Origin: Schaalia odontolytica
GTDB taxonomy: Bacteria; Actinomycetota; Actinomycetes; Actinomycetales; Actinomycetaceae
DNA: 32,000 bases
Direction of reading: 5' to 3'
Assembly (NCBI RefSeq): GCF_005696695.1
Contig: NZ_CP040006.1
Coordinates: forward strand, 1,650,001 to 1,682,000
The notes under the pieces are model-generated. The model was not told where the DNA came from, searched no databases, and saw nothing but the letters and a program-made list of their open reading frames with translations. Positions 2,806 through 22,173 of the stretch are shown one piece after another. How positions within the stretch are numbered: the first letter of the stretch is position 1; every line of letters begins with the position of its first letter. Both the position numbers and the translations under genes were made by a program.

Positions 2806-3165
2806 CTGTGACCCCTTCTATTGACAGTTGGTAAGTGAAGGCTCCGTGTTGCAACCACGACCCCTTGTGTCAAACATATCTCTCAATAGGGTTTTCGGAT
2901 ACCCCCTGAGACACTCCTTCTCAGCATATGTCGCTTGGCGAGACGGCATATTTGCGCGTAGTACCATGCATCAACCCGGACCGATAGAGAGCACTCATCG
3001 GCGACATCACAGCCGCATATCACCCATTTTTTCTAGGGTTTCATGACATCTTTCCATCGAATCTGACAAATCAACCGACAGCCAAGATTTGCGCCATATC
3101 CACCCCTACAAGCAAGCACGCGCGAAGCCATAGCACACGAGGCCCGACCTAGTGGTCGAAGAAAT

Positions 3166-3198
3166 GCCCGCGCCCCGGAGAGTCTCCGGGGCGCGGGC
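3166..3198 (-). terminator. Rho-independent terminator of the S8 protease gene
   Basis: Perfect 13-bp GC stem gcccgcgccccgg / ccggggcgcgggc with a 7-nt loop, 20 nt past the stop (3218). In the minus sense it is followed by ATTTCTT. Confidence 0.6.
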
Positions 3199-3217
3199 AA
3201 ACAGTCTCGCAGCTATG

Positions 3218-3715
3218 TCAGCCGACGAGCTGTCCCGACTCGTTGAAGTAGTACCACTTCCAGCCGATCCAGTGACCGCCGGTGTACATCGCTCCCGAGT
3301 CGGTGCTCAGGTAGTACCAGAAGCCGCCATCCTTCAGCCAGCCGGTGGTCAGCGCGCCGCTGGGGGCCATGTAGTACCAGGAGGAACCATCCTTCACCCA
3401 GCCGGTCGCCATCGCGCCGCTGCCGGGCGTCAGGTAGTACCAGGTCAGCCCATCGAGGATCCATCCCGTCACCATCTGTCCGGTCGTCGGGTTCAGGTAG
3501 TACCAGGAGGAGCCGTCCTTCACCCAGCCGCTCGCCTGAGCGCCAGACAGATTGTGGAAGTACCACGCGCCATCCTCACTCGCCCAGCCGGTGCGCATGT
3601 AGCCATCCGCACCAAAGCGGTACGTGGAGTTGCCGATCTGCACCGTCTGGCTCACCGGGTAGGTGCCATCCGCATAGCGGTACCACCAGCCGACGGAGTC
3701 GCTGATCCACTGGCC
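3218..3715 (-). repeat. Cell-wall-binding repeat array (about 60-nt period)
   Basis: Encodes about 9 GW/WYY repeats (GWVKDGSSWYYLNPTTGQMVTGW...), with the same periodic ggtagtaccag signature as 187-625. Confidence 0.75.
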
Positions 3716-6700
3716 ACCCTGCGGGGCGGGAGCCGGATCGGGCTCAGGCGCCGGAGTCGGGTCCGGCGCGGGCGTCGGGTCCGGCGCGGGCGTCGGGTCC
3801 GGCGTCGGCTCAGGCGCAGGCATCGGATCCGGGGTACCCGGCAGCTTGATCATGAGGGCGCTCGTCAGGTAGGAGGCATCACGCACCTGGACGCGCAGGC
3901 TCACGTCCACGGCGGACGGGGTCCACGGGAAGGTCACGGAGGAGGCCGCAGCTCGGTCCCCGCCGTCCGTCACCGTCGTCCAGTCGCGCACGAGGGTCTC
4001 GGTGCCGTCTGCGCCGATCTGCACGGCTCGGACCTGCTGTGTGCCGGCGATGCCACCGGCAACCGTCGCGGTCACGTCGACCGACGCGCCGACCTCGCCC
4101 GTGTACGTGTAGCTTCCCCCGGCCTCGTTAATGTTGGCACCCGCCAGGGTCATCGACGCGCCCGTGTAGGTGTGCAGGTGGGAGGCGTCGATGCCGGCCG
4201 CCTCGAGGGCGTCCTTGGCGACATTCCACGCCGGCTCACCCTCGGCTGCGGCAACGTAGACGTGGGTGTCATCCTTCTTCTCGTCGCTCAGCTCAGGCTC
4301 GAGGTCGAGTCGGGTGAGCGTGGAGGGCAGGACGAGGACGCGCGGGACGTCCACGCCGAAGGACACGCGGGTCATGCCCTCGCCGAAGTAGGCGCTCTGG
4401 CGGCGTCCGTTCGTCGGGCGACCGTCGTACACGAAGGAGCCGTCCACGCCGCCGCGCACGACGATGCGACGAGGCATGGGAACCCAGCTGCCTTCCATGC
4501 GGATCGAGGTCACCTTGGAGCCGTACTCGACGAGTTCTAGGGAGTTTCCGGTGACGCCGCTCGAGCGCTCGACCGACTCGGGGATGACGAGCTCGGTGAG
4601 GGCCGTGGTGCCCGCGAAGGCGTCGTCGCCGATGACCTTGAGGCCCTCGGGCAGGACGACGCGGGTGAGCGTCTTGTTGTTGGCGAATGCCGTCGCGCCG
4701 ATCTCGACCGTGCCCGCGCGCACCGTGTAGTCGGTGAGCGTGTTGGCGGCCGGGGACAGCATCAGGTGCAGGCCGTCGTCCGCCTTGCGATACAGGACGT
4801 TGTGCTCGGCCGAGTACACCGGGTTGCCATCCACAACGGTCAGCGTCGCGATCTTGCGGTCGTTGTACAGGGCGGTCTCGGCGAAGGAGGTGACGCCCGC
4901 TCCGATGTGGAACGAGGTCAGGGCCGTGCTCTCCGAGAATGCCTGCTCGCCGACCGTGGTCACGGAGTCCGGCAGGGACACCGAGGACTGTGCCGTGCGG
5001 CTAAACGCGAAGTCGCCGATCGTGGTCAGGCGGCCGAGCTCGGGCCGGAAGTTGACGCCGGCCTTGGCGCTCGTGGACTCAAACGCGCTGCCGCCCAGGG
5101 AGATCGTGCCGCCCAGGTCGATGCTCGCGAGCTTGTCGGCGGAGCAGAAGGCGCAGGTGCCGACCGTCTCGAACTTCTCGGGCAGGGTCACAGCGGTGAG
5201 CGCGGAGAGGCGGAAGGCCTCGTCCTTGATCTCGCGCAGGCTGTCGGGCAGCGTCACAGTCGTGATGCCCGCCTTCTGGAATGCCTTGGGCGCGATCGTC
5301 GTGACACCGTCCAGGACCGTGTACGTGCCTCCCGTGTTCTTGGCGGCCGGGTACAGGATGAGGCGCGAGTGGTCCTTGGAGTACAGGACTCCGTCAACGC
5401 TCTCGTAGTTCGGGTTCGCGGGATCGACCTCGACGCTGGTCAGCGCGGCGGTCTCGGCGTAGCCCGAGGTCACGGAGTCGGCGGCGACGTTGGGGCCCAG
5501 CTTGATCGTGGTGAGCGCCGAGTTGTAGTCGAAGACCTCCGCGCCGATCGTCACCACGGAGCGCGGCAGCTCGATGGCCTCGAGGCTCGTGTTCGCGAAC
5601 GCGCGGTCGGCGATCGTGGTCAGCTGGGCCGGGTGGGCCTCGTCGTCGACGAAGGTGATCTTCTTCAGCGAGCTGTAGATGAAGGCCTCCAGGCCGATCG
5701 AGCGCACCGAGGCGGGGACCGTCACGGACTCCACGGTGGAGCTCGCGAAGGCACGCTCGCCGATGGAGGTCACGGTGTCGGGCAGGGTGACCTCGGTGGC
5801 CGAGCCCTTGTACTTGACGAGGACGCCGTCCTCGCTGATCTCGAAGTCGTCGGCATCGGCGGAGCGCACCGTGACGGGGATGGACGCGGTCTTGGCCGCG
5901 CCGGCCTCGGTGGTGACGGTGGCGGTCAACGTTCCGGAGCCCGCGTGATCGCCGGCGGTCAGGGTCGCCTTGCGCGTATCCGTGTCGGCGGCGACCGTGG
6001 CCAGGTCGGCAGGCTCCACGCTCCACGTCACCGCGCGGTCCTTCAGCGAGGGCGCCAGGTAAGCCTTCACGGGAGCGGTCTCGCCCACCTTGACGCTCAC
6101 CTGGTTGTCGGCGAGTTCGATGCCCGCATCCTCGGAGATCGTGCGCACGCGGATCTGGGCGCTGGCCGACAGGGTCGGCTGAGACGCGTCGGTCGCGGTG
6201 ATCGTCGCCTCGCCGGCGGCCAGGGCGCGGACCTCACCGTTGTCGTTCACGGTGGCCACGGCCTCGTTCGAGGACGTCCACACGAGGTCGGTGACGTTCG
6301 CGTTCGCCGGCTCGTAAGAGGGGCTCAGCGTGACCGTCTCGCCCGCGACGACCTCGGAGTCCTGCGGGGTGAGCGCCAGGGAGGTCATCGGGATCGTGCT
6401 GAAGCGGATCACCTGGCGGGCCTGGTTCTTCCCCCAGTCCCAGGCGAACAGGTAGGCGGTCGCCGGATCCGAGGAGTCCGCGCGGTCGATGAGGTCGGTC
6501 CACTTGATCTCGTAGTGCTTCGCGTAGGTGCCGTCGGCCTGACGGTTCGCGCCCACAGCCTCCTTCTCGTCGTAGTAGCGACGAGAGGTCGGGGACTCGG
6601 AGAAGGCGATGCCGGCCAGCGGCGAGTTGTCGGTGACGTCGAAGGACACGACGCGCTCGTCGCCCTCGCCGGTCACCGTCAGGTTGGAGATGACGGGCGC

Positions 6701-9700
6701 CTGGGTGTCCAGGGTGAAGTCCCAGGTCAGCTGCGAGGAAACGCTCGAGGGCGCGACCGAGGCCGCGTCGATCGTCAGCTTGTAGCGGCCCGCGGGCAGC
6801 TCCTTGCCGTCCTTGTCGAAGCCGTCAAAGACCGGGTTGTTGCCCTCCTGGCTTTCGATGGGCTCGACCTTGCTGGCGTGGTAGTTGAACAGGGACTTGC
6901 GGGCGCGCTCGAAGGTGTACTCACGCACCACCTCGCCGGCCTCGTTCGTGTAGGTGTAGGTCACCTTCGGCGAGTTACGCAGCAGGCAAGTGCGCGGCAG
7001 GATGCGCGAGGGGGCCTCGGGCAGCGCGGAGCGGGACATGATGAAGTACGCGGGGTCGACCGCGCGCACGTCATCGAGTTCCTGTCCGGCGAGCGGGTTC
7101 AGGGCGCCCAGGGGCACCTCGGTCGCGGGGTTGATGAGGGTAGAGGAGCAGGCGTGCGCGGTGCTCGTCGTGCCGTCGTACCACTTGCCATCGAAGACGG
7201 CAGGCGCGCCCCAGGAGCCGTAGAAGCCCATGTAGGGGACAGTCAGGTCGGGCTGACCGTCGGCGCTCGTGAAGGTCACGGCGCCGTCGATGAACGTGCC
7301 CTTGGGAGCGTTCTCATTCGCGTACGAGGCGAAGGCACCCTGCGGGGTCACGGTGACGGTCACGGTCGCGGTGCTCTTTGCAGGCACGGTCACCGAGTCA
7401 GCGGAGTAGGTCAGGTCGATGCCCTGCCCCGCCCAGTTCTTGGAGTGCTCGGTGAAGAGGCCCCCCTCGACGATCTCGGAGAGCGCCTGGCCGCCCAGGG
7501 TGTACGTGTGGTCGGCGTCGGAGATGTTCGTCAGGGTCACCTGGAAGGTCCACCCGTTCGTGCCCTCGCCCAGGTCAGCCTTGGGACGCCACGGGTTTTC
7601 CGCGCCCGCGACGCTCGGGTAGACGGTCGTGGTCGTGGCTGCGAGGGCGTCCACCTGGCCGGCGCCCACGCGGCGCGGCGAGTAGTAGGTGCCGTCGTTC
7701 TGGTCGATGTCGAGCAGCGGGTGGGCGGTGCCCATCATGAGGGTGGTGACGATCGCGGCCTTGTCTGCCTCCGACAGGCCGGCGAATGCCGGGTCGTTGT
7801 TGACGCGCTGGCGCACGAGGGTCGCGATGCCCGCCACCTGCGGGGTCGCCATGGACGTGCCCGACATGGAGCGGTACGTGTTGCCCAGGACAGCCGCGAC
7901 AATGTTACCGCCGGGGGCCGCGATCTCAGGCTTGAGCTTGAGGTCGGGCGTGACACCCCACGAGGTGAAGTCGGAGACCGACGGGTTCGTCGAGGCGAGC
8001 TTCAGGCCCGCGTGAGGGTTGGAGATCGTGATGGAGCCGGACTCACTGGCCTTGATAGCCTCGATGAGCGCGTCCTTCTCTTTCTTCGTGATGGTCACGG
8101 TCGGCATCGTGTGGGTGGCCTCGATGGTCGCCACGTAGGGGTTTTCGACCGTCTCGGAGTCACCGATGATGAGGGCGGCGGGCTTGGAGGTCAGCTGGGT
8201 CAGGCCCTTGACCTTGGCCTCGTGGGTCATGTCCGCGCCCGTCGCACTGTCGGAGCCGCCGCGGTCTTCGAGGACGATGACCTGAGAGAGGTCTCCGGGG
8301 TGCTCGGCGACGAGCTTGCTGAGGGCTGCCGCGTCACCGATACCCGCGTAGACGAGGGTGTAGGTGCCCTCGGGGATGTCGAGGAGGCTCGGCACGACGG
8401 CATCCTTGAGGCCGCGCGACTTGCGGTAGACGACCTGGCGGTCCCCCACCGTCAGGTAGGGTAGGGCGTCCTGGTTGTTGACCGAGGCGACGGCCAGGGT
8501 CGAGCTGTAGGACCCGGGCTCGGAGACCGTGCCGGCGTCGGGGTCGGTCGCGTAGGGCTTGTTTCTGCCGCTGTAGTTGGAGTACGCGCTCGAGTAGGAG
8601 TTACCCGCAGCGGCGTTGACCGTCACGCCGGCGGCGGCGAGGTTCTTGTAGACCTCCGCGTACATGGTTCCGGCCTCGGTGCCCATACCCGCGTCCTCGC
8701 CGAGGGAGAGGTTGATCGAGTCGGGCTTAATAACGACCGCGTCGTCGAGGGCCGCCAGAACAGTGTTGTCGGGGATCGATCCATCCTTGTCGGAGGCGAC
8801 CTTGGCGACGATGATCTGCGCGTGGGGCGCGGTGCCCTGCAGGTCGGCCGCGTTGGCGGCAGCGATCGCGGCAACGTGGGTGCCGTGCGACAGGTCCTTG
8901 CTGGACTTGGGCAGCACGTCCGCGTCGTTGTCCGCGTAGTCGAAGACAAAGGGGATCTTGCTGTTGAGGTAGGCGCCGGTCTTGCCGTGCGGCAGCTTGC
9001 CGACGAGGGCCTCGACGTCCCCCTGGCTCAGGCGCACGTCGACGCCATCCATGGAGCCGGAGAACGCCTGGTGGGTGGCCTCGATGCCTGTGTCGATGAC
9101 CTCGACGACCTGACGATCACCCTTCTGGGTGGTCTGGTTGGCGCGCGTCATCTCCAGGGAGGAGGCGTTTTGCAGGGCGGGATCCACGGCCTCGGCACCG
9201 AGTGCGCCCGCGTCCCCCTCGACGACCATGGGCTTGTGGTGGCGCTCGATGAACGCAGCCTTGACGCCCTCGGTCGCCTTGATGGCATCCAGGGACGAGG
9301 CCGGGGCCTGGATTGCGAAACCGTCCAGCGCGTGCGTGTAGTCGCGCACGTCGGTGATGTCCGCACCGGGGACCACTGCCTCGACCGAGGTTTCGATGCG
9401 TTCCTTGACCGTCTCGTGCTTGGTCGAGGACGACAGGCCGAAGACCCGCTGGTACCACGGGATGCCGACCGAGCCGTCCTCGAGCTGGACGATGATCGTC
9501 GTCGGGGTGTCGTCGGCGGGGACGCTCTCGGGGGTGGTGGTCGGGTTCTCGGCCCCGGCCTCGTCGGCGGCTCCCGACTGCGGGGTGCCGGACTGGGCGT
9601 CGACGGACGAGGCGGGGGCGGGGGTACCCGACTGGCTTTCCTCGGGGCTGTTGGCCGCGAAAGCCGCCGGGGTGGTCACGGCGGTCATGGCAAGGGTGCC

Positions 9701-9742
9701 CGCGGTTAGCAGCACCAATGCCGAGGTTGTGCGATGGGACAT
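3218..9742 (-). CDS. Giant cell-envelope subtilisin-like serine protease (peptidase S8) fused to Big_2-like, BspA-type LRR, Pro-rich linker and cell-wall-binding repeat domains
   Basis: 2174-aa ORF with a signal peptide and an I9-like propeptide (TIIVQLEDG...DGFAIQAP). The catalytic triad was verified on the DNA: Asp217 in VIDTG (9092-9094), His286 in SHGTHVA (8885-8887), Ser630 in SGTSMATP (7853-7855). A PA-like insert lies between His and Ser. Two Big_2-like segments follow (VTLSPSYEPANANVTDLVWTSSNEAVATV). The C-terminal half is paralogous to the 872-aa neighbour. Confidence 0.9.
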   Translation of the reverse strand: MSHRTTSALVLLTAGTLAMTAVTTPAAFAANSPEESQSGTPAPASSVDAQSGTPQSGAADEAGAENPTTTPESVPADDTPTTIIVQLEDGSVGIPWYQRVFGLSSSTKHETVKERIETSVEAVVPGADITDVRDYTHALDGFAIQAPASSLDAIKATEGVKAAFIERHHKPMVVEGDAGALGAEAVDPALQNASSLEMTRANQTTQKGDRQVVEVIDTGIEATHQAFSGSMDGVDVRLSQGDVEALVGKLPHGKTGAYLNSKIPFVFDYADNDADVLPKSSKDLSHGTHVAAIAAANAADLQGTAPHAQIIVAKVASDKDGSIPDNTVLAALDDAVVIKPDSINLSLGEDAGMGTEAGTMYAEVYKNLAAAGVTVNAAAGNSYSSAYSNYSGRNKPYATDPDAGTVSEPGSYSSTLAVASVNNQDALPYLTVGDRQVVYRKSRGLKDAVVPSLLDIPEGTYTLVYAGIGDAAALSKLVAEHPGDLSQVIVLEDRGGSDSATGADMTHEAKVKGLTQLTSKPAALIIGDSETVENPYVATIEATHTMPTVTITKKEKDALIEAIKASESGSITISNPHAGLKLASTNPSVSDFTSWGVTPDLKLKPEIAAPGGNIVAAVLGNTYRSMSGTSMATPQVAGIATLVRQRVNNDPAFAGLSEADKAAIVTTLMMGTAHPLLDIDQNDGTYYSPRRVGAGQVDALAATTTTVYPSVAGAENPWRPKADLGEGTNGWTFQVTLTNISDADHTYTLGGQALSEIVEGGLFTEHSKNWAGQGIDLTYSADSVTVPAKSTATVTVTVTPQGAFASYANENAPKGTFIDGAVTFTSADGQPDLTVPYMGFYGSWGAPAVFDGKWYDGTTSTAHACSSTLINPATEVPLGALNPLAGQELDDVRAVDPAYFIMSRSALPEAPSRILPRTCLLRNSPKVTYTYTNEAGEVVREYTFERARKSLFNYHASKVEPIESQEGNNPVFDGFDKDGKELPAGRYKLTIDAASVAPSSVSSQLTWDFTLDTQAPVISNLTVTGEGDERVVSFDVTDNSPLAGIAFSESPTSRRYYDEKEAVGANRQADGTYAKHYEIKWTDLIDRADSSDPATAYLFAWDWGKNQARQVIRFSTIPMTSLALTPQDSEVVAGETVTLSPSYEPANANVTDLVWTSSNEAVATVNDNGEVRALAAGEATITATDASQPTLSASAQIRVRTISEDAGIELADNQVSVKVGETAPVKAYLAPSLKDRAVTWSVEPADLATVAADTDTRKATLTAGDHAGSGTLTATVTTEAGAAKTASIPVTVRSADADDFEISEDGVLVKYKGSATEVTLPDTVTSIGERAFASSTVESVTVPASVRSIGLEAFIYSSLKKITFVDDEAHPAQLTTIADRAFANTSLEAIELPRSVVTIGAEVFDYNSALTTIKLGPNVAADSVTSGYAETAALTSVEVDPANPNYESVDGVLYSKDHSRLILYPAAKNTGGTYTVLDGVTTIAPKAFQKAGITTVTLPDSLREIKDEAFRLSALTAVTLPEKFETVGTCAFCSADKLASIDLGGTISLGGSAFESTSAKAGVNFRPELGRLTTIGDFAFSRTAQSSVSLPDSVTTVGEQAFSESTALTSFHIGAGVTSFAETALYNDRKIATLTVVDGNPVYSAEHNVLYRKADDGLHLMLSPAANTLTDYTVRAGTVEIGATAFANNKTLTRVVLPEGLKVIGDDAFAGTTALTELVIPESVERSSGVTGNSLELVEYGSKVTSIRMEGSWVPMPRRIVVRGGVDGSFVYDGRPTNGRRQSAYFGEGMTRVSFGVDVPRVLVLPSTLTRLDLEPELSDEKKDDTHVYVAAAEGEPAWNVAKDALEAAGIDASHLHTYTGASMTLAGANINEAGGSYTYTGEVGASVDVTATVAGGIAGTQQVRAVQIGADGTETLVRDWTTVTDGGDRAAASSVTFPWTPSAVDVSLRVQVRDASYLTSALMIKLPGTPDPMPAPEPTPDPTPAPDPTPAPDPTPAPEPDPAPAPQGGQWISDSVGWWYRYADGTYPVSQTVQIGNSTYRFGADGYMRTGWASEDGAWYFHNLSGAQASGWVKDGSSWYYLNPTTGQMVTGWILDGLTWYYLTPGSGAMATGWVKDGSSWYYMAPSGALTTGWLKDGGFWYYLSTDSGAMYTGGHWIGWKWYYFNESGQLVG
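3756..3809 (-). repeat. 18-nt tandem repeat x3 encoding the (PAPDPT)n linker
   Basis: gtcgggtccggcgcgggc occurs at 3756-3773 and 3774-3791, with a variant copy at 3792-3809. These translate on the minus strand to PDPTPAPDPTPAPDPTPAPEP. Confidence 0.85.
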
Positions 9743-10057: not shown

Positions 10058-10378
10058 TCAGAGAATAACCGCAGTGCCCGTCGCGATGGCGGCGAGCATG
10101 CCGTTGTTGGTGCCGGCGGTGAAGTAGTCGACCTTCACGCCGACGACCGCGTTGGCGCCCATGGCCTGGGCGCGGGCGCACATTTCATTGACGGCGGTTG
10201 CGGAGGCACCGCCGATCTCTTCCTCGTACTGGGAGGCGCGGCCACCGAACATGTTGGACAGGTTTGCACCGAAGTCCTTGAACATGTTGACGCCGGAGAT
10301 CGCCTCGCCGGAGACCATGCCGATGTACTGCTTGACGGGCGCGCCCTCAACGGTCGGGGTCGTCACAACGAGCATCAT
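10058..10378 (-). CDS. YbjQ/UPF0145-family protein (putative heavy-metal-binding domain)
   Basis: The 106-aa ORF has the family-typical pattern: TTPTVEG..V.QYIG.VSGE...G.N.FKD......N.FGGR...YE......A...M...A...GANAVVGV..DY. Confidence 0.8.
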   Translation of the reverse strand: MMLVVTTPTVEGAPVKQYIGMVSGEAISGVNMFKDFGANLSNMFGGRASQYEEEIGGASATAVNEMCARAQAMGANAVVGVKVDYFTAGTNNGMLAAIATGTAVIL

Positions 10379-10593
10379 TCACTCCTTCATAGGGGGTTAA
10401 CGTGGCAACACTACCCGCGATCCCGTGCGTAGGCTAGTAGGCGCTCATCAACTGATTGGCTCAGTTGGTCGCCGCACCCGTTTGCTGCGTTGAAGCGAGC
10501 CCCTTTGAGCCGCCACGGCGCTACCATTCGATTCATCATTCCATCCGGGTGCAGCGGCGCGCCCGGCGACTTGTGCGGAGCGATGCCACGAAG

Positions 10594-10664
10594 ATGCACG
10601 TTTACGGGTCCGTCGGGCAGAAGAGTCCCACCGTCCTCATCATTCACCCGATGCTGTCCTCGGC
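10594..10664 (+). pseudogene. Orphaned 5' fragment of the alpha/beta-hydrolase gene (MHVYGSVGQKSPTVLIIHPMLSSA...)
   Basis: Compare MQLHVYGPCGHDCPTVLIIHPMLSSA at the start of the intact gene (12397). The last 38 nt are identical to 12436-12473. The reading frame runs into low-GC DNA and stops at 10689. Confidence 0.7.
10627..10664 (+). repeat. Left copy of the 38-bp perfect direct repeat
   Basis: cccaccgtcctcatcattcacccgatgctgtcctcggc, identical base for base to 12436-12473. Confidence 0.95.
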
Positions 10665-12435
10665 ATCACTGCCACTGACAAGCCCATAACAACTCAAACA
10701 ACACCACAATTCAGTGAATCTATACATACTACTCCTCCTGATAACACCACTTACCATTCTCATCAATACTCATAGACCAATAAGCCATCTTGGCGATAAT
10801 CTTATCCAAAGCTGTCGAAACATAACTCCGAATACAAGAATCAAAATCAACTTTCGCAACGTGCAACGCAAGAAGCCTAACAATAAGCTTACTAAGATCG
10901 CATACTACAGTAACTTCACGACCGTCCGGAAAACTACCACGACTCGAATGCTTGATAGCGTTATACGTATTTGCAATTGCCCTCGACAAGGCAACCATGC
11001 CACCGAATTCACTCGACAGCTCCAGCTCCAGAACACGCAAACACCGAAAAATACACAATGATACTGGAAGATTCCTTCCCCTACCTTTCAAACATTCCTC
11101 ACCAACACACTCACCAATCAGCTCACCGGCTGCTTCCATACTCATCGCCGTTGAGAGAATGACATCTTCAGCAAATACACCTTCACGACCAAGAACATTC
11201 ACGCTCGGGAGAATAAAACGTTCCCACTTCTCATACTCAGCACTCCATACTTCCATACCTCCTACACCGACCATCTGGAAGTTAGCGAGCGGATCGTTCA
11301 ACTTATCACGACTAGGGACATCACGGACAGAATCGGCAAAAGTCCTAGAACTAATAAGCTGGATACGCGGCTTGATCGGATCTTCCCTACTAGGAAGAGT
11401 AAAAGAAAAGCGTTCATCACGGAGAGCATGACGCCGAATGAACAATTGCCGCCCATACATGAATGTCATTAAATGACGCACCTTCTGCTGCTCACGATAG
11501 TGATCATCAAAACTCCTCGGACCTGAACGAAAAGAGCTAACCAATGACACATCATCAGCAATCAGCACTTTTCGCTGATACCCGTCAGATTCAGACACCT
11601 CTGACCAAATCGATTGAATCCGCATGTTCGTGTCGCCCTGCACCCACTCAAACACTATTTCTGACTTCACCTTTAGCTTAAGCTCATTTGCAATATTCTT
11701 CTCATCTACCAAAGGTTCAATACTCACAGCACTCAAGCCCGACCAGGCATTCAGGCCATCAATCCAGCTATATAGTTCATCTATAACAAGAGGGTCTTCA
11801 AAACACCCATTACGCGATTCAAGTACTGCGACTGAGGGCCGGAGCTTACCAACCGAAGCCTTCCAAGCGCCAAATGGCGCACGATGGCCCAGCCACACGA
11901 TACCAAATAAGCCAACAGCCCCTTCTGGGGTAAGTAGCTCCATATTTGTCGGTGCTTTCCGCGATTCAAACCAGTGTCGAACATGATCAAACTGCCCATC
12001 ATCCGCGCCCTGCAGATATGGCACCTCAACCACAAGACCGCGGCGACGGTCCATCTTTATTGTCGCTCCAACCCACGGCGTACCCTTGACACCATCGGCA
12101 AGTAGGCCACTAATACTGTCCCCAATTTCTAACTGAAAGTCGCTCATACGGAAATCCTACACACATTAACTACTTGTCTGTTAGAAAATAAGCAGATTAT
12201 TTTTGACCACAGTCCCATTACACGAGTACCACCCTTAAACACGTTCCGTGTCAAATCAGATCTACCACAACATATCGCAACATTCTGAGTTCATATAACT
12301 GGAATCACTTAGGAGGGAAAACCATTGACACGCCCATACCTTGTTACACTTATGCCATCCCACTAACTCACGCATATTCATGTCAATTCCATCGCAATGC
12401 AACTACACGTCTACGGTCCTTGCGGGCACGACTGC
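10665..12435. mobile_element. Low-GC insertion cassette (single-gene genomic islet) with no recombinase
   Basis: Composition drops abruptly. Sampled 60-nt lines give about 37-47% G+C, versus about 65-70% in the flanks. The segment lies exactly between the two copies of the 38-bp direct repeat and holds one 472-aa ORF plus 249 bp of AT-rich upstream DNA. Confidence 0.6.
10729..12147 (-). CDS. Hypothetical 472-aa cytoplasmic protein, candidate ApeA-like/HEPN-type defence protein (unverified)
   Basis: This is the only long ORF in the low-GC cassette, with no signal peptide or TM segment. The N-terminal start (FQLEIGDSISGLL...GTPWVGATIKMDRRRGLVVEV) resembles my recollection of ApeA N-terminal domains. 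The C-terminal helical part contains NTYNAIKH, and R-x4-6-H strings occur mid-protein. The assignment is from memory only. Confidence 0.7.
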   Translation of the reverse strand: MSDFQLEIGDSISGLLADGVKGTPWVGATIKMDRRRGLVVEVPYLQGADDGQFDHVRHWFESRKAPTNMELLTPEGAVGLFGIVWLGHRAPFGAWKASVGKLRPSVAVLESRNGCFEDPLVIDELYSWIDGLNAWSGLSAVSIEPLVDEKNIANELKLKVKSEIVFEWVQGDTNMRIQSIWSEVSESDGYQRKVLIADDVSLVSSFRSGPRSFDDHYREQQKVRHLMTFMYGRQLFIRRHALRDERFSFTLPSREDPIKPRIQLISSRTFADSVRDVPSRDKLNDPLANFQMVGVGGMEVWSAEYEKWERFILPSVNVLGREGVFAEDVILSTAMSMEAAGELIGECVGEECLKGRGRNLPVSLCIFRCLRVLELELSSEFGGMVALSRAIANTYNAIKHSSRGSFPDGREVTVVCDLSKLIVRLLALHVAKVDFDSCIRSYVSTALDKIIAKMAYWSMSIDENGKWCYQEE

Positions 12436-13182
12436 CCCACCGTCCTCATCATTCACCCGATGCTGTCCTCGGCCTCGAGCATGAAGGCCTCGCTCTGCGA
12501 TCACATGGGTCCCGGACTGCGTTTCCTCGTGCCGGACCTGTCCGCCCACGGGGACGAGGCCTCGGCCCCCTACGTGTCGGCGGCGGCGGAAGCGGGGGCG
12601 ATCCACGAGTGGCTGGCCTCCCACGGGGTGCGTCGCCTATCGCTGGGGTTCGCGGCGTCGCTCGGAGGGGTGATCCTGTTCGAGCTGCTCCGGTACCCGG
12701 ACCTCTCGTTCGATCGACTGTTCATTGAGGGGGTGAGCTTCTACTCGGGCGGTCCCGTAGCCCGAGTCGGCGGGGCCGTTCTCAGCCGGGTGATGGTCGC
12801 TAAGCACCGGAAGGCCGCGCGGGATCCCGAGGCCGGGGCACGCAAGCTCGCACGCCTCTACGGCGAGGAAGCTGCACGCTCGATGGTCGCTAGTTTTGCA
12901 GCGATGAGCGAGGAGAGCATCCGCGCGATCGTGCACGACTGCTCGCATGTCAGCCTGCCGCCCCTCTCCCCCGCCATCCAGCGGCGCTGCACGTTCGCGT
13001 ACGGGGAGAAGGACTCGGACCTGCGGCTCGCGCGCCGCGTGATCCCTCGCCTCTATCCGGAGGCCGAGCTGCGCGTCTGGCCCGACTGGGGGCACTGCGA
13101 GCGCATGAGCCGGGACTCGGTCGCCTACGGGGCGATGCTGCGGAACGTCGCCCTGGGCTCGGCATCTACTGATCGTTCGTGA
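12397..13182 (+). CDS. Alpha/beta-fold hydrolase
   Basis: 261-aa ORF with an oxyanion-region VLIIHPMLSS, a nucleophile-elbow-like FAASLGG, and a C-terminal WPDWGHC (His of the triad). Confidence 0.75.
   Translation: MQLHVYGPCGHDCPTVLIIHPMLSSASSMKASLCDHMGPGLRFLVPDLSAHGDEASAPYVSAAAEAGAIHEWLASHGVRRLSLGFAASLGGVILFELLRYPDLSFDRLFIEGVSFYSGGPVARVGGAVLSRVMVAKHRKAARDPEAGARKLARLYGEEAARSMVASFAAMSEESIRAIVHDCSHVSLPPLSPAIQRRCTFAYGEKDSDLRLARRVIPRLYPEAELRVWPDWGHCERMSRDSVAYGAMLRNVALGSASTDRS
12436..12473 (+). repeat. Right copy of the 38-bp perfect direct repeat
   Basis: Identical to 10627-10664 and lies inside the N-terminal coding region of the intact hydrolase gene. Confidence 0.95.
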
Positions 13183-16494: not shown

Positions 16495-16664
16495 GTGCGG
16501 CTCACTTTCTGGCTCGAGGACGGGTCTTCTTCGACTGCTCTGAGGATACTCCCCCGCGTTTGGATTAGTGCCCCTATGCCAACCTCGCTTGATCTGACCT
16601 TAAACCGAATCGCGGCGCGGATTCATAGGTCGGGACAATGAGCGCACATCACGAACACGGTAAC

Positions 16665-16691
16665 GCCCCGGGCACTAAACGCGTCCGGGGC
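16665..16691 (-). terminator. Possible terminator hairpin after the nuclease-like gene
   Basis: gccccgg / ccggggc 7-bp stem with a 13-nt loop, just past the stop at 16699. Weak. Confidence 0.25.
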
Positions 16692-16698
16692 ATCACCG

Positions 16699-17784
16699 TC
16701 AGGCCCAGCGTTGCGCAGCCTCGCGGATTTGATCCACATACTGATAGATGTCTTCGACCGAGTTGATGTTGTAGCGTTCCTCAGTCTTATCTTCGTTGAC
16801 GAACGCAATCACCTTTCGGCGACCGAAGTAGCACCGAAGAATCGGACGCCGATTATTGTCGTCAGCAAGGACGGAGAAGTAGGAACGCACGTCACGGTAG
16901 GTGATGCGTTCAAACGGCAGTTCAGCACACGCAATGGCCTTCACGATCCGATAAGCAGCGAGCTCCTCCTCGGTTGTTTCAATACCATCTGACACTTCCT
17001 CGACGTGCACCTCTTCGTTAACTTCTTCTTCCACATCATCGGGTACCGGCATCACCGTGTTCACATCCGCACCCAATGCACTCTTCAAGCGATCATTGAT
17101 CCGTTCATTGAGGAACTGGCGAAGAGCTTTGTCCGTGATCACAGTGAACTTCTCCAGGACCTGCTGCGTCACACGCCCTTCGTAGACACGTGAGGCAAAA
17201 AGCCTCACGAAGTCCGCAGAAGGCTCTTTAAACTCCATGCCCACTTCACGCTTGATCGCTCCGAGATACTTGAGCTCCTCCGCAGCACTCACGATCGACG
17301 TCAGATCGAAACGTTCCTTCGTGAGCTTCCTCAGCTCAGGCAGGAAAGTCTCATCAATATCCGCAAGATCCAAAACCAAGAAAGGCCTTGAATCCATGAC
17401 ATTGGGGGCATCAAGGTCCGTGTAGAAGTTATAGACACGGCCGTTGGTGAGCACCGCAATTCGCGCTTTTGTCACTGAGAAGTATCGGTACAGCTGAGCG
17501 GCATGCTCAGGTGTAAGGTCACCGGCAACTTTCTTGCATTCGATGAGAATCCGAACCTCACCACCATCCATGATGGCGTAGTCAACCTTTTCGCCGCGCT
17601 TGGTACCAACATCCGCCGTGAACTCGGGTACAACCTCTTGCGGATCGAAGATGTCATAGCCGAGAACAGTTGAGATGAATGGAAGAATGAACGCGGTTTT
17701 CGTTGCTTCTTCAGTTTCGATGTTCTCCCACTGGTCAGCAACCTTGCCAGCCAGGAGGGTAAGAGCGTCTTCAAAGGCCACCAT
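16699..17784 (-). CDS. Orphan HsdR-N-terminal-type PD-(D/E)xK nuclease-domain protein
   Basis: 361-aa ORF in a lower-GC stretch. The N-terminus matches the type I restriction R-subunit N-terminal nuclease pattern (EEATKTAFILPFI...KVDYAI...VRILIECKK...YFSVTKARIAVLTNG..Y.FY). An acidic linker and an uncharacterised C-terminal domain follow. No HsdM or HsdS gene, and no helicase, is nearby. Confidence 0.7.
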   Translation of the reverse strand: MVAFEDALTLLAGKVADQWENIETEEATKTAFILPFISTVLGYDIFDPQEVVPEFTADVGTKRGEKVDYAIMDGGEVRILIECKKVAGDLTPEHAAQLYRYFSVTKARIAVLTNGRVYNFYTDLDAPNVMDSRPFLVLDLADIDETFLPELRKLTKERFDLTSIVSAAEELKYLGAIKREVGMEFKEPSADFVRLFASRVYEGRVTQQVLEKFTVITDKALRQFLNERINDRLKSALGADVNTVMPVPDDVEEEVNEEVHVEEVSDGIETTEEELAAYRIVKAIACAELPFERITYRDVRSYFSVLADDNNRRPILRCYFGRRKVIAFVNEDKTEERYNINSVEDIYQYVDQIREAAQRWA

Positions 17785-18020
17785 TGACTCCTTGTTGAAA
17801 TACGTGAGCTTCCTCTATAACTCTAATCACACTTTACCTATGTATGTCAAGTAAGCTAGACAGCTCGCCACAGAACCGCTTCGACAGCACGCCATAGCCA
17901 TCACCGCAGTTTGGTAGGGCCCCACACAAAAACTAGGGCATACCTTGGTGTGTGTCACGCACGCGTGTCACGCAGCAAGGCATGCCCCGTTTTACCGCAG
18001 AATCATGCGGTTTTTGTTGT

Positions 18021-18042
18021 GGAGATGGGGGGAATCGAACCG
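18021..18042 (-). other. tRNA/tmRNA 3'-end-like fragment (T-loop plus acceptor strand), candidate prophage att core
   Basis: The minus strand reads GGTTCGATTCCCCCCATCTCC-A, i.e. a T-loop, a T-stem 3' strand and a 7-nt acceptor 3' strand. The upstream 60 nt do not fold into a cloverleaf by hand: the T-stem pairs only 2 bp, the acceptor pairs 5/7, and the best anticodon hairpin has an 8-nt loop. Confidence 0.4.
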
Positions 18043-18108
18043 AAGGCCCCTAATCGCGCCCGAAAGTGCGCGCGCGGGTCATCGTGCGCCACTACAGCAC
18101 CACAAAGT

Positions 18109-18570
18109 TTAGCGGAAAATGCGGCCCCAGCCGCCGGGCTTCGGGGCGGGCTGCTGAGGCATGCCGGTCCAGTGGGCAGGAGCGGGCGGGGCTGCGGGCG
18201 CAGGCTGAGACTGTGCGGCCTTCACGGCGGCACGGGTGTGTGCAACGAAGCGCATCAGTCCATCGACGGCTTTGCGCTCGAAATGGAGAGTCAGCAGCGC
18301 TTGCCGCGTCTCGATCATGAGCCACTTATCCCCGCCGCTCCTCTTCTTCGCAGCAAACGCGAGGATGCCGAGCGTGACGAGGCGCGTCGCAGTCACGCGC
18401 GCCTGCATGGCCTCGCCGTCCTCGACCTCGACGCTGACGACGTCGGTTAGAGGGATCCGCTGGATTGCCTCGCCGCGTCGCTTTGAGTCGTAGAGCAGCT
18501 CGGTGTCGGTGCAGATGATCTCAGCGGGGTCGGATGAGTAGAGGCGGAAAGCGCCTTTAGGGCGGTGCAT
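18109..18570 (-). CDS. Hypothetical protein, co-oriented with the repressor at the prophage edge
   Basis: 153-aa ORF with a strong AGGAGG RBS upstream of the ATG at 18570. It has a globular N-terminal domain and a Pro-rich C-terminal tail (QPAPAAPPAPAHWTGMPQQPAPKPGGW). Confidence 0.65.
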   Translation of the reverse strand: MHRPKGAFRLYSSDPAEIICTDTELLYDSKRRGEAIQRIPLTDVVSVEVEDGEAMQARVTATRLVTLGILAFAAKKRSGGDKWLMIETRQALLTLHFERKAVDGLMRFVAHTRAAVKAAQSQPAPAAPPAPAHWTGMPQQPAPKPGGWGRIFR

Positions 18571-18634
18571 AGCTCCTCCTTTGAGTGCGACCTACCTATA
18601 TGGGCAGTCTACAGCTCGCACGAGGACGTGGAGG

Positions 18635-18937
18635 CTATTCCGGAGAGGCTTCGTCCGCGAGGCGGCGCTCCGCCTCGGCAGCTACATCGGAGCCACTGAC
18701 TCCGAGAGCTTCGCACATCGCACCGAAGTCGCTCATCGTACAAACAGTGTCGCCCGCGAAGATCTTGTAACAGCGCGCGCGAGTGATGCCGGCCCGCTCG
18801 GCCAGGCGGTCGATAGTCAGGTCCAGACTTTGCAGACGCTCCTTGAGTACAGCTAAGACAGCGCGTTCAAAGGGACTCGATTTAAGAGATCTGCTTCCCA
18901 TGAGGTAAGCATATCTACTTTTGTAGACCCATGTCAC
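18635..18937 (-). CDS. XRE/cI-like HTH repressor
   Basis: HTH segment LTIDRLAERAGITRARCYKIFAGD. The gene is divergent from a Cro-like gene. The start is ambiguous: GTG at 18937 or ATG at 18901, with no obvious SD, so the transcript may be leaderless. Confidence 0.7.
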   Translation of the reverse strand: MTWVYKSRYAYLMGSRSLKSSPFERAVLAVLKERLQSLDLTIDRLAERAGITRARCYKIFAGDTVCTMSDFGAMCEALGVSGSDVAAEAERRLADEASPE

Positions 18938-19003
18938 ATGAAAACGAGTTGCAAAATCTCTATTTGTAGACTTATATAGCAGTCATTGGTCTACAAATGT
19001 AGA
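18917..19003. promoter_or_regulatory. Operator-like repeats in the repressor/Cro divergent region
   Basis: TTTGTAGAC occurs at 18920-18928 and 18963-18971, with the inverted copy GTCTACAAA at 18989-18997. The palindrome TCTACA-AA-TGTAGA spans 18990-19003, in an AT-rich stretch. Confidence 0.55.
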
Positions 19004-19016
19004 AAGGAACCATGAG

Positions 19017-19340
19017 ATGACGGTCGCAGCCGTAATCAAGAGCATGGCCCGTGAGCTGGGCATCTCTCAGACAGAGCTTGCTGCCCGCGCTCGTATGAGC
19101 CGCGCGAGCCTGTCCCTCAAGCTCAACGAGCGCCGAGATCTGACCTTGCCGGAAGTTGAGAGGCTCGCAGCAGTGCTCGGCACGTCCGTCCGCGAGCTCC
19201 TCGACCAAGTCGAGCGCACCACCGAGACAGCACCCGCGCCCGATAAATCGCGAGGCTATGCAATCGCCGATAAGGCGACCGGCGTCGTGATCCTCCAGGC
19301 CTCGCACGGAAGCATCTACGACGAGGACATCCCGGCATGA
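19017..19340 (+). CDS. XRE-family HTH protein (Cro/antirepressor-like early regulator)
   Basis: 107-aa ORF with the HTH LGISQTELAARARMSRASLSLKLNERRDLTLPEVERLAAVLG and a GAAAGGA RBS 8 nt upstream. Confidence 0.75.
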   Translation: MTVAAVIKSMARELGISQTELAARARMSRASLSLKLNERRDLTLPEVERLAAVLGTSVRELLDQVERTTETAPAPDKSRGYAIADKATGVVILQASHGSIYDEDIPA

Positions 19341-19522
19341 GCGCCGTCGTCGCAGTGACCATCGGCCTAGTTCTCGCGGTCGCCGCAATACCTGTCATCG
19401 TCTGCGTCGTATACCTCACCGGTATCTACGCAGGGGATGCGCTCGACCGCCTCGTTTGTATGGGCCTCGACGCGGGTGATCGGATCGCCGAAATGATCGA
19501 TGGGGAGGTGCCCGGGAAATGA
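19337..19522 (+). CDS. Small membrane protein
   Basis: 61-aa ORF with an ATGA overlap with the upstream stop and one TM helix (VVAVTIGLVLAVAAIPVIVCVVYL). Confidence 0.5.
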   Translation: MSAVVAVTIGLVLAVAAIPVIVCVVYLTGIYAGDALDRLVCMGLDAGDRIAEMIDGEVPGK

Positions 19523-19740
19523 CCGCCGCTGCACCGTTCGCCCCTGACCGCTGGTACTCAGCCCAGCAGGTTCAGGAAACCCTCAGCCTCTCCCGCTCAA
19601 CCGTCGAGCGCCTCGGAGTCGAGGGCAAGGTCGCCGCAATCAAGATCGGGCGTTCCGTCCGGTACAGCGGCGACGACCTCAACCACCAGTGCCAGAGCCT
19701 CGGCTCCTGCGCCACCGAAAAGAAGAGCTCCCAGCGGTAG
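19519..19740 (+). CDS. Excisionase-family (MerR-superfamily) helix-turn-helix DNA-binding protein
   Basis: 73-aa ORF with WYSAQQVQETLSLSRSTVERLGVEGKVAAIKIGRSVRYSGDDL, the typical HTH_17/Xis pattern, and an ATGA overlap. Confidence 0.7.
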   Translation: MTAAAPFAPDRWYSAQQVQETLSLSRSTVERLGVEGKVAAIKIGRSVRYSGDDLNHQCQSLGSCATEKKSSQR

Positions 19741-19761
19741 AAGCGCTGGGAGCGAGCAGAA

Positions 19762-19775
19762 CCCCTAGAGAAGGA
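19762..19775 (+). promoter_or_regulatory. Start-associated 14-nt motif CCCCTAGAGAAGGA, copy 1
   Basis: Ends 7 nt before the GTG at 19783. An identical 14-mer lies at 22580-22593, 6 nt before the ATG at 22600. The motif contains the GAAGGA RBS. Confidence 0.5.
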
Positions 19776-19782
19776 AGATTCC

Positions 19783-19995
19783 GTGAACAAGACTACCACA
19801 CGCCGCCGCCACCTGCGGCCCTGGCGAACCCTCATCGGAGGCGCCGCACTCGCCGCCGCCCTCACCCTCGGTTTCGCGATGCGCGGCCTCGACAACCCCG
19901 ACGGCCTCCCCGAGTGGACCTTCTTCCCGGCCCTCGGACTCCTCGCGCTCGCGGTCTGCTTGATCCGCGCGGACTGGAAGGCAGGGCGGCTGTGA
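19783..19995 (+). CDS. Small membrane protein
   Basis: 70-aa ORF with a GTG start. It has a basic N-terminus and two hydrophobic segments (LIGGAALAAALTLGFA, FFPALGLLALAVCLI). Confidence 0.5.
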   Translation: MNKTTTRRRHLRPWRTLIGGAALAAALTLGFAMRGLDNPDGLPEWTFFPALGLLALAVCLIRADWKAGRL

Positions 19996-20378
19996 ACGCC
20001 TCGGTCATCGTCACAGTTGTTTTCCTGCTATTCGCAGGCTGTGTCCTGCTGGCCTGGATCGCGGCGCGCGGGGCCTCTCGTGCGGCCTCCATCGAGGAGA
20101 TCGCCGCTCGCATGCAGCGATCCGCGTCGAAGGCCAGGGCGAAGGGCACGACACTGCTTGAGCGCCACGTCGGCTTCGATTACTACGACGTGGACGGCGA
20201 GGCTCCGCTGCCTCATCTGATCTGCCTCGCGACGCAGGACGTCATTATCGAGGCAGAGCTGAATAACTGCTTCGCCCTCGACACGCCAAAGATCGCGGTC
20301 GATCTCGACCGTCAGCAGATCCACGTGACCCTCGAAGTGCTCAGGCTTGATGAGCCGAGCCTGGAGGTGCGGACCTGA
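19992..20378 (+). CDS. Membrane-anchored hypothetical protein
   Basis: GTG at 19992 overlaps the upstream stop (GTGA). The product is VNASVIVTVVFLLFAGCVLLAWIAARG... plus a soluble domain. The longer track ORF from 19689 has an Arg/Pro-rich off-frame-looking N-terminus that overlaps two better genes. Confidence 0.5.
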   Translation: MNASVIVTVVFLLFAGCVLLAWIAARGASRAASIEEIAARMQRSASKARAKGTTLLERHVGFDYYDVDGEAPLPHLICLATQDVIIEAELNNCFALDTPKIAVDLDRQQIHVTLEVLRLDEPSLEVRT

Positions 20379-20578
20379 TGCCGAAGAAGCCGCCGCTCGA
20401 TGTCGAGATCACACGCGCGATCGCCCGCGCTCACATCCTCTACGCGAACCGCCCGCACATAGATGAGCGTGTGCATCGCCTGGTCACGGAGGCCTGCGCC
20501 CGCGCCGCTCACTACCCGGTCGAGGTCAAGCCCTCACGTTCGGCGCTCGCGCCGATGAGGCCTCGCCGATCCGCTTAA
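20378..20578 (+). CDS. Hypothetical protein
   Basis: 66-aa ORF, start overlapping the upstream stop, co-oriented in the operon. Confidence 0.4.
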   Translation: MPKKPPLDVEITRAIARAHILYANRPHIDERVHRLVTEACARAAHYPVEVKPSRSALAPMRPRRSA

Positions 20579-20608
20579 CCACCAACACCAAGAACAGAAG
20601 GAACCACA

Positions 20609-21847
20609 ATGAGTAAGAAGTTCTGGGCAGCAGGCGCTGCCCTCACCCTCGCGGCGCTCGCGCTGCCCTACGGCGCCGCATACGCCGCCGCCGAGGCCGC
20701 GCCGACCATGACCGCACAGGTTACCAAGGCGACCAGTGCCTCACGCCAGACCTCGAGTGAGGTCACCGTCGAGGGAACCTGGACCGCGCCGAAGCTCGCG
20801 GTCGGCCAGCACTTCACCGTTGCCAGCAAGGACGGCGGCTTCAAGTGGTATGCCGGCTTTCCCTTCGTCCTCGACGACGGAACCAAGATCGGCGACTGCG
20901 AGGCCGACGAGGCGACGCTGACCTGCACGGTCACCGAGGTTCCCGCGTCCTACGCGGACAAGACCGACGTGACCGGAAACTTCCATGCCCGCGCGCGTCT
21001 CTCGGACGCCGCAGTCGGCACTGAGGACACGCAGATCGTCGTGAACGGCCAAGTCACGCGCACGCTCGTCTGGGGCGACCGTGACGGCTCGGGCACCTGC
21101 ACGAACGACTGCTCGACGCCCGCGCACTTCGAGTACGCGGCTCCCGAGACGATTAAGTTCGGGTGGACCAACGCGGACCAGTCGATCGGCTGGGGCATCA
21201 AGTGGGTAGTTGAAGCCGGAAAGGCCTACACGCTGACGGACGAGACCAACCAGCTGCCGAAGGCTGTGAAGTGCTCGTCCGGCCCGACCTGGGATCCTGC
21301 GACGACAACCTGGACCGACGGCACGCTCGACGAGTCAGCGCACACGCTGACGTTCACGCCGCCCGCAGGCTCGCTGGTCTGCATCGTCTATCCTGCAGCG
21401 ACCACGCACGTCGAGGGCCAGGACACCTACACCAACCGAGCTACGATCAACGGCAAGAGCCTTGAGGCAACCGCAACGATCAAGGCCTCGGGCGGTACCG
21501 ACGGCGACGGCAAGACCAAGCCGCAGCCCGCGCCGGTCCCCTCGCCTCTCCCGAAGCCCTCGCCGAAGCCGTCCCCGGTTCCTACTCCTTCGGATGAGCC
21601 GCAGTCTGCGCCGTCCCCGATGCCTACTCCTACGACCGCGCCGACGCCGGGCACGGTGAAGCCCGCGCCGAAGCATGAGGCCGTGCCGGCTACTGCTCCG
21701 GCCCCGCAGGAGCGCCTCGCCAAGACTGGCGCGACCTCCAGCGGACTTTTGCTGATGATCGTCGCGATCCTGGGCGGCGCAGGCGCTGGCCTGTTCCTCC
21801 TCCGACTTCTTGAAGGCCCCGCGAGCAAGAAGGGAGAAAAGCTGTGA
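20609..21847 (+). CDS. Prophage-encoded sortase-anchored surface protein (LAxTG sorting signal) with an N-terminal adhesin-like Ig-fold domain and a Pro-rich stalk
   Basis: 412-aa ORF with a signal peptide (MSKKFWAAGAALTLAALALPYGAAYAAAEA). A Cna/collagen-binding-like segment is present (GQHFTVAS...FVLDDGTKIGDCEADEATLTCTVTEV...VTGNFHARA). The stalk is PxP-rich (PQPAPVPSPLPKPSPKPSPVPTPS). The C-terminus has LAKTG, a hydrophobic helix and a basic tail (KKGEKL). Confidence 0.8.
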   Translation: MSKKFWAAGAALTLAALALPYGAAYAAAEAAPTMTAQVTKATSASRQTSSEVTVEGTWTAPKLAVGQHFTVASKDGGFKWYAGFPFVLDDGTKIGDCEADEATLTCTVTEVPASYADKTDVTGNFHARARLSDAAVGTEDTQIVVNGQVTRTLVWGDRDGSGTCTNDCSTPAHFEYAAPETIKFGWTNADQSIGWGIKWVVEAGKAYTLTDETNQLPKAVKCSSGPTWDPATTTWTDGTLDESAHTLTFTPPAGSLVCIVYPAATTHVEGQDTYTNRATINGKSLEATATIKASGGTDGDGKTKPQPAPVPSPLPKPSPKPSPVPTPSDEPQSAPSPMPTPTTAPTPGTVKPAPKHEAVPATAPAPQERLAKTGATSSGLLLMIVAILGGAGAGLFLLRLLEGPASKKGEKL

Positions 21848-22173
21848 AGTTCGAGAAGGCACTCGAAAACCCGGTAACGCTCACCCTCGAAGCAGCCGAC
21901 GTTTTCTACCTGCGCGATTTCCTGTACGAGGAGAGCATCAGTGCCGATGTCGATTTCGACAACGTCGAGACCCTGCACAACGACAGAGCTCGCCAAGCAG
22001 CGAAGATGACACTCAGCCGCGAGCACACGAAGATGACGAAGATCATCGACGCCCTGGACGCAACCCTGGACGCAACCGAGGGTCGCGTTGTCGGCGCAAA
22101 GAAGATCGCGTCCATGACCGACCCCATGCAGGCCGCTAATGAAGTCGGTACCTCGACGGAGGAGGGGAAGTGA
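21844..22173 (+). CDS. Hypothetical phage protein
   Basis: 109-aa ORF with a GTGA overlap with the upstream stop. Confidence 0.5.
   Translation: MKFEKALENPVTLTLEAADVFYLRDFLYEESISADVDFDNVETLHNDRARQAAKMTLSREHTKMTKIIDALDATLDATEGRVVGAKKIASMTDPMQAANEVGTSTEEGK

Follow-up and report, generated by a model that had tools for sequence, protein, structure and literature searches.

The single-gene system ApeA (Gao et al. 2020) encodes a protein of about 600 aa, and its published structures show helical N and Mid domains, a split HEPN domain, and assembly into decamers or dodecamers (bioRxiv 10.64898/2026.01.26.701840). The HEPN motif of the characterised Ec1ApeA is RNKITH, and the R521A substitution abolishes defence (bioRxiv 10.64898/2026.03.20.713152). 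In HEPN domains, the Arg is most often followed by N, D or H; the Parep1/8 family retains the His but not the Arg and has other conserved basic residues, and a version is deemed inactive only if it lacks every conserved polar residue (PMC3710099). We analysed a 32,000-nt window of Schaalia odontolytica (NZ_CP040006.1, 1,650,001-1,682,000; all coordinates below are positions within this window) containing a gene for a 472-aa protein, which an earlier note had proposed to be an ApeA-like HEPN defence protein or something new. The observation recorded in that note for 10729-12147 was confirmed, and its interpretation was partly supported. We consider it probable that the gene encodes a stand-alone, cytoplasmic, two-domain defence protein, acquired horizontally, in which an ApeA_NTD1 domain is joined to a HEPN-derived effector with an Arg-less [Y/N]NxxKH motif. 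The protein best fits a "minimal" type of roughly 470 aa that is related to PADLOC candidate PDC-S58.

Domain architecture and the variant HEPN-type motif

The gene, the domains of its product, and the matches discussed in this section are located as follows.

10729-12147, minus strand: coding sequence (CDS) of the 472-aa protein, with an ATG start and dN/dS of about 0.2 against two alleles
11350-12147, minus strand: N-terminal beta-rich domain, aa 1-266, delimited by AlphaFold2 secondary structure and conservation; presumed sensor or regulatory domain
11434-11964, minus strand: match to Pfam ApeA_NTD1 (PF18862), aa 62-238, 33.3 bits against a gathering cutoff of 25.5
10732-11349, minus strand: C-terminal helical domain, aa 267-472, delimited by the AlphaFold2 model, conservation, and weak HepT/HEPN structural matches; presumed HEPN-derived effector
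10855-10986, minus strand: sub-threshold match to Pfam HEPN_Apea (PF18739), aa 388-431, 14.9 bits against a cutoff of 24.4, E=0.037
10939-10965, minus strand: variant HEPN-type motif Y395-N-A-I-K399-H400-S-S-R403, with no Arg at the canonical position

The open reading frame (ORF) is a real gene rather than a chance ORF, because its product has 46 homologues at E<=1e-3, its family profile matches 405 representative clusters, its dN/dS is 0.20-0.21 in comparison with the two alleles, and its AlphaFold2 model is confident. An AGGA sequence lies 9 nt 5' of the ATG. The protein is identical to S. odontolytica WP_131726650.1 / QCT35817.1, for which NCBI gives the name "hypothetical protein" and UniRef "ApeA N-terminal domain 1-containing protein". 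Consistent with the proposal that the protein is cytoplasmic, the N-terminus is acidic and unlike a signal peptide; the most hydrophobic 19-residue window (Kyte-Doolittle score 1.69) contains D, K and R and lies within a predicted long helix, and there is therefore no convincing transmembrane segment. All of the sequence strings quoted in the earlier note were found, namely MSDFQLEIGDSISGLL...RRGLVVEV at the N-terminus, RSFDDH at aa 211-216, REQQKVRH at aa 218-225, and NTYNAIKH at aa 393-400.

We next compared the protein and its family with domain databases. ApeA_NTD1 was matched above the gathering cutoff by the 472-aa protein and by 64 of 66 diverse relatives (best E 3.7e-19). The only other Pfam match of the protein was to HEPN_Apea, over a span that includes NTYNAIKH; this family was matched at E<=1 by 18 of the 66 relatives (best E 1e-4) and was the only recurrent C-terminal match, with no other Pfam family recurring in more than one of these relatives. 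An NCBIfam search of the protein gave no match. Hence, the suggestion of an ApeA-like N-terminal domain followed by a degenerate HEPN domain stands, in the Pfam sense, for its first half, while the HEPN_Apea score of the second half is below the cutoff. The very N-terminal string that had been cited as a sign of ApeA is present in the protein and lies outside the ApeA_NTD1 match.

The AlphaFold2 model (predicted local distance difference test 88.3, predicted template modelling score 0.87) places 16 strands in aa 11-266 and an all-helical domain at aa 267-456. Residues W59, P66, S127, D130, H216, R238 and H240 are near-invariant in the N-terminal domain, with W59, W168 and W181 forming a set of conserved aromatics, and the C-terminal domain conserves W301, R310, E327, E338, R368, K399, H400 and R424. 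The HepT HEPN toxins 8xdj, 8xeh, 7ae8 and 7ae6 recurred among the top Foldseek matches for the C-terminal domain, and 7AE8 is the structure named as closest to HEPN_ApeA in the ApeA cryo-electron microscopy paper (bioRxiv 10.64898/2026.01.26.701840). The recurrence of HepT is suggestive only. A Foldseek search with the full-length model against PDB and BFVD gave nothing significant. The structural check proposed in the earlier note yielded a confident two-domain model and, for the C-terminal domain, recurrent HepT matches at low template modelling (TM) scores and without significance. Separately, part of the N-terminal domain matched Hcp, the type VI secretion system tube protein, over about 110-120 aligned columns with high probability and a non-significant E-value (5xeu, probability 0.99, TMt 0.49), and matched phage tail-tube proteins more weakly; this likeness may be only that of a generic beta-barrel.

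Residue conservation was counted over 135 full-length relatives. The family consensus at the motif is [Y/N]-N-x-x-K-H-x-[D/N]-R. The HEPN Rx4-6H catalytic motif is not present in full: the position of its Arg (395) is Tyr in 114 relatives, Asn in 16, and Arg in none, while its His is kept in 134. K399 and H400, each found in 134 of the 135, are the two most conserved residues of the whole family, and N396 (124), R403 (104), R424 (131) and R368 (117) are also widely kept. Two acidic residues share one helix, E327 (123/135) and E338 (117/135, with Asp in the other 18); an exact Ex3[KR] motif upstream of [Y/N]NxxKH was not seen. The earlier note had read NTYNAIKH as a HEPN signature with Tyr in place of Arg, and we found that YNAIKH does align with Ec1ApeA RNKITH. 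A second, word-indexed homologue search, started from a profile of 66 sequences, recovered little beyond this clade and reached no Arg-bearing HEPN_Apea members; Tyr395 is presumed to occupy the Arg column of bona fide PF18739 proteins. RSFDDH and REQQKVRH, offered as canonical R-x4-6-H strings, were ruled out as HEPN motifs since they are poorly kept (R211 in 48/135, R218 in 20/135, H225 in 21/135).

Judged from these sequence comparisons, the motif looks like a remodelled active site and not a decayed one. Complete loss of Arg could instead mean that the HEPN-like domain is catalytically dead, and that the protein acts through S127, D130, H216, R238 and H240, or without enzymatic activity, as an RNA or ligand binder, a sensor or a decoy. 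In support of this alternative, HEPN domains that lose their motif can become binding domains (PMC3710099), and the N-terminal domain has near-invariant polar residues of its own (S127 and D130, together with H216 in 134/135, H240 in 132/135 and R238 in 123/135 relatives); the near-invariance of H216, R238 and H240 points to another functional cluster, within that domain or beside it. By contrast, the conservation of K399, H400, N396, R403 and R424 is typical of an active site rather than of decay, and the family retains polar residues of the kind whose complete absence defines the versions called inactive. We therefore regard a dead HEPN domain as unlikely.

The inserted cassette, its slot, and the neighbourhoods of relatives

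The 472-aa gene lies in a variable chromosomal slot with the following parts.

10668-12405, no strand: inserted low-GC cassette, 1,738 nt, 46% GC, missing from empty-site assemblies
10597-10667, no strand: left copy of a 71-nt direct repeat, the duplicated 5' end of a hydrolase-like gene
12406-12476, no strand: right copy of the 71-nt direct repeat, lying within the intact hydrolase-like gene
12148-12396, no strand: AT-rich spacer of 249 nt that lies within the cassette and separates the start of the 472-aa gene from that of the divergent hydrolase-like gene
10594-10689, plus strand: orphaned 5' end (31 codons) left over from the hydrolase-like gene (MHVYGSVGQKSPTVLIIHPMLSSAS...)
12397-13182, plus strand: 261-aa hydrolase-like gene, the target with the duplicated 5' end; weak Abhydrolase_6 matches are recorded for relatives
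10058-10378, minus strand: ybjQ-family gene, the other border of the slot

We aligned the window to assemblies that have the same ybjQ gene. The slot is empty in seven of these, with the 261-aa hydrolase-like gene directly adjoining ybjQ. Alignments of the two flanks overlap by exactly 71 nt in the empty sites, indicating that the insertion is 10668-12405. The two copies of the 71-nt repeat are 83% identical in the window and 100% identical in another allele (L025), and the duplication is far too long to be a transposase target duplication. The insertion strands the 31-codon hydrolase stub behind the native promoter; the spacer presumably holds the promoters of both the 472-aa gene and the hydrolase-like gene; no consensus sigma-70 site was found in it. 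The 472-aa gene has a GC content of 47.3% (43.8% at third codon positions), as compared to about 65% in both flanks. The rest of the cassette has no other ORF of note and no integrase-sized ORF in the ORF list, no Rfam match of note, and no tRNA. An RNA partner, a tRNA attachment site and an integrase within the cassette were accordingly rejected from the ORF, Rfam and tRNA scans. The claim that the 472-aa gene is the sole gene of a foreign cassette was thus borne out, with boundaries set by the empty-site comparison and a non-coding remainder.

The same slot, with the same repeats, is also occupied by alleles that are only 83-86% identical in protein. In one assembly, the corresponding position (window 10451-12405) holds an alternative cargo of two unannotated genes, of 230 and 275 aa (L030:3038-4878); this cargo is also low in GC (43-48%), its insertion point is the intergenic region and not the 71-nt repeat, and a PDB sequence search with its two products gave no match. 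In another assembly, the slot is occupied by a 73-aa ORF (L036:4621-4842). The slot between ybjQ and the hydrolase-like gene is a hot spot for foreign cargo, and the 472-aa gene has been acquired horizontally, with a strain-level presence/absence polymorphism. The locus shows cleanly how a single-gene islet varies between strains of a common human oral commensal, with alleles that are empty or hold other cargo.

Genes neighbouring the relatives supported the defence-islet context proposed in the earlier note. Independent relatives lie beside AbiEi/AbiEii, SLFN_AlbA_2 and AAA_21+RloB genes, and beside YobI-ATPase, RelA_SpoT or Abi_2. Two relatives are plasmid-borne: the first adjoins Dcm, GIY-YIG nuclease and AIPR genes between recombinases, and the second adjoins TIR, caspase, RelA/SpoT and methyltransferase+DUF262 genes. 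No partner gene is conserved across these neighbourhoods, indicating that the family gene is a single-gene unit. All 17 genome loci and both plasmids with relatives are from Actinomycetota, and no relatives were found in phage genomes. PDC-S58, which is a prediction only and is listed in S. thermophilus ST55 (PMC11514479), was matched by 10 of the 66 relatives (best E 5.3e-9; profiles of 452 and 461 positions), in the region of the N-terminal domain only. These sequence matches argue for PDC-S58 being a sister family, as opposed to one to which the 472-aa family belongs.

A rather improbable alternative is that the gene has no role in defence, and is a selfish or addictive toxin-like cargo, or an unrelated accessory gene in a recombination hot spot. 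In its favour, the cassette has no recognisable mobility or immunity partner, the 472-aa protein has no PADLOC match, and one relative has an ordinary neighbourhood. However, known defence genes recur around independent relatives on both chromosomes and plasmids, sister sequences match PDC-S58, a candidate family derived from defence islands, and the slot varies between strains in presence/absence and in its alternative low-GC cargo.

As a side observation, a RelA/SpoT-type (GTP pyrophosphokinase) gene is found just upstream of the family gene both on a Streptomyces chromosome and on a Pseudarthrobacter plasmid, two settings that are unrelated (L043:5599-9401 and L046:5741-8407). The family gene in L046 is annotated as two CDS, and may be a frameshifted pseudogene.

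Other features of the window lie to both sides of the slot. There is a second low-GC trough (52-54%) at 16500-18500, upstream of a Pyr_redox/rhodanese gene, and an ORF on the minus strand at 16699-17784 codes for a protein of 361 aa that carries the type I restriction domain HSDR_N. In other strains, the position of the HSDR_N gene is occupied by a gene for a 1,211-aa YobI-ATPase, an MmeI-type restriction-modification enzyme, or ABC-2 genes, indicating that another variable and defence-like hot spot lies about 5 kb from the first. Beyond the HSDR_N gene, at approximately 18000-22000 (compare L020:1-4039), there are small genes with HTH_3, HTH_31 and HTH_17 (excisionase-like) domains and a 412-aa unannotated ORF; this cluster may be what is left of an integrative element or prophage. 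The islet is also adjoined, at 187-9742, by two genes for very large surface proteins, which are a 2,174-aa subtilisin (S8) with Big_2, BspA-type leucine-rich repeats (LRR) and choline-binding repeats, and an 872-aa LRR_5/choline-binding protein. Surface-protein lengths differ among strains (2,174-2,222 aa).

Proposed activity of the 472-aa protein

The most likely function of the gene is single-gene defence against phage or other mobile elements, by an abortive or RNA-targeting route. We propose that an infection cue is sensed by the beta-rich N-terminal domain, perhaps with a contribution from the domain interface, and that sensing would then release the activity of the C-terminal helical domain. 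This presumably HEPN-derived domain probably dimerises and probably cleaves RNA. Its catalytic centre would be non-canonical, with H400 and N396 kept and the Arg swapped across the family for Tyr or Asn, and the role of the Arg would presumably be taken by the invariant neighbour K399, or by R403 or R424. If active, the Arg-less [Y/N]NxxKH clade would widen the known catalytic repertoire of HEPN RNases.

Several results weigh against a HEPN-derived defence effector. PDB sequence and profile searches with the 472-aa protein gave chance matches only, and the HEPN_Apea score of this protein is, as described above, below the Pfam cutoff. Foldseek with the C-terminal domain alone gave no significant match (best E 0.5), and the HepT chains, at ranks 2, 12, 13, 16, 17, 21 and 26, had E>=0.78 and TM scores of 0.22-0.35. 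None of the 135 relatives has the Arg on which defence by Ec1ApeA and Ec2ApeA depends (R521A and R502A abolish it). A 467-aa "minimal" ApeA homologue could not be transformed (bioRxiv 10.64898/2026.03.20.713152; Bp1ApeA, WP_076938731.1, is 467 aa long). The neighbourhood of one relative is without defence genes, the 472-aa protein itself matches no PADLOC model, PDC-S58 included, and a literature search found no paper on ApeA_NTD1. Having weighed these points, we still favour a two-domain defence protein with an Arg-less HEPN-derived effector.

A more far-reaching proposal, which we put forward tentatively and regard as less likely than the outline above, is that the about 400 clusters of the family represent a single-gene immune system distinct from ApeA, with known members in Actinomycetota. 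The K399-H400 dyad would, with R403 or R424, rebuild the nuclease site of an Arg-less HEPN domain, and the beta-barrel N-terminal domain, with its faint likeness to Hcp and tail-tube proteins, may recognise a phage component directly.

Comparison with ApeA and other described systems

To compare the family with characterised ApeA, we took Ec1ApeA (601 aa; L018:2501-4303) from a collection of E. coli genomes, and used it alone or in a profile of 18 sequences (Ec1ApeA and 17 homologues). The PADLOC ApeA model (PDLC02157) gave no match to the 472-aa protein at E<=10 and none to the 66 relatives at E<=1, as compared to 1389 bits for Ec1ApeA as a positive control. Alignment of the 472-aa family profile with hhalign gave a probability of 0.09% against Ec1ApeA alone and 0.35% against the 18-sequence profile, and a probability of 1.2% (P=0.04) when limited to the C-terminal domains. 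The best hhalign path is weak, yet colinear, pairing N396...H400 with N522...H526 of Ec1ApeA and the helix of E327/E338 with that of E378/E389; this path is compatible with a very distant common HEPN origin. Neither ApeA_NTD1 nor HEPN_Apea was matched at E<=1 by Ec1ApeA and its 17 homologues. Hence, the RefSeq name "HEPN family anti-phage protein ApeA" and the UniRef name "ApeA N-terminal domain 1-containing protein" label unrelated-looking proteins.

It is very improbable that the 472-aa protein is a genuine, divergent orthologue of the Gao-2020 ApeA that works in the same way, as an oligomer of doughnut shape that has an activating pocket for a small molecule or RNA and cleaves tRNA anticodon loops or phage RNA. 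Orthology would account for the shared name-giving Pfam families, for a motif in register with RNKITH, for a conserved Glu-rich helix colinear with that of Ec1ApeA, and for a single gene in a defence-type context. By contrast, the PADLOC model is silent, the hhalign probabilities are very low, neither Pfam family is found in Ec1ApeA-type proteins, the 472-aa protein is ~130 aa shorter and has a beta-rich N-terminal domain, and the Arg on which ApeA depends is absent. The 472-aa protein thus differs from characterised ApeA in every testable defining feature. The identification as the ApeA of Gao et al. 2020, which the earlier note had raised, was rejected, and the PADLOC search that it had recommended returned no model for this protein.

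The name "ApeA" therefore spans two things, a roughly 600-aa protein whose mechanism was solved in 2026, and a roughly 470-aa candidate of the Pfam ApeA_NTD1/HEPN_Apea type. There is no detectable homology between the two, and transfer of annotation from one to the other is consequently unsafe.

Among described systems, the Gao-2020 ApeA resembles the 472-aa protein in being encoded by a single gene and in having a non-catalytic N-terminal region and a C-terminal HEPN-type x-N-x-I-x-H in the same register; by analogy, a shared logic of a sensor coupled to an RNase is likely. It differs in having no detectable sequence or profile homology, in its helical N and Mid domains and greater length, and in its catalytic Arg (R521/R502). 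The Parep1/8 HEPN-T family (PMC3710099) provides a precedent for a HEPN domain with the His and without the Arg, possibly with compensating basic residues, but it is archaeal and of unrelated architecture, and is likened here by description only. PDC-S58 is likewise a single gene of the same size (the ST55 ORF is 1,416 nt), whereas its matches are confined to the N-terminal domain of relatives, and the sole example found in the literature is from a Firmicute. With the ApeA/BMEI1217 family (Anantharaman et al. 2013, PMC3710099; PF18862 and PF18739), the 472-aa protein shares an N-terminal match above the cutoff, a mostly beta N-terminal domain of about 270-300 aa with conserved aromatics, a C-terminal helical domain with HEPN_Apea as its only recurrent match, and the occurrence of a single protein in conflict-system neighbourhoods. 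By contrast, Rx4-6H is listed as conserved in the ApeA/BMEI1217 family, whereas the family described here has [Y/N]NxxKH and never the Arg, its HEPN_Apea match is sub-threshold, and its relatives of known organism are all Actinomycetota.

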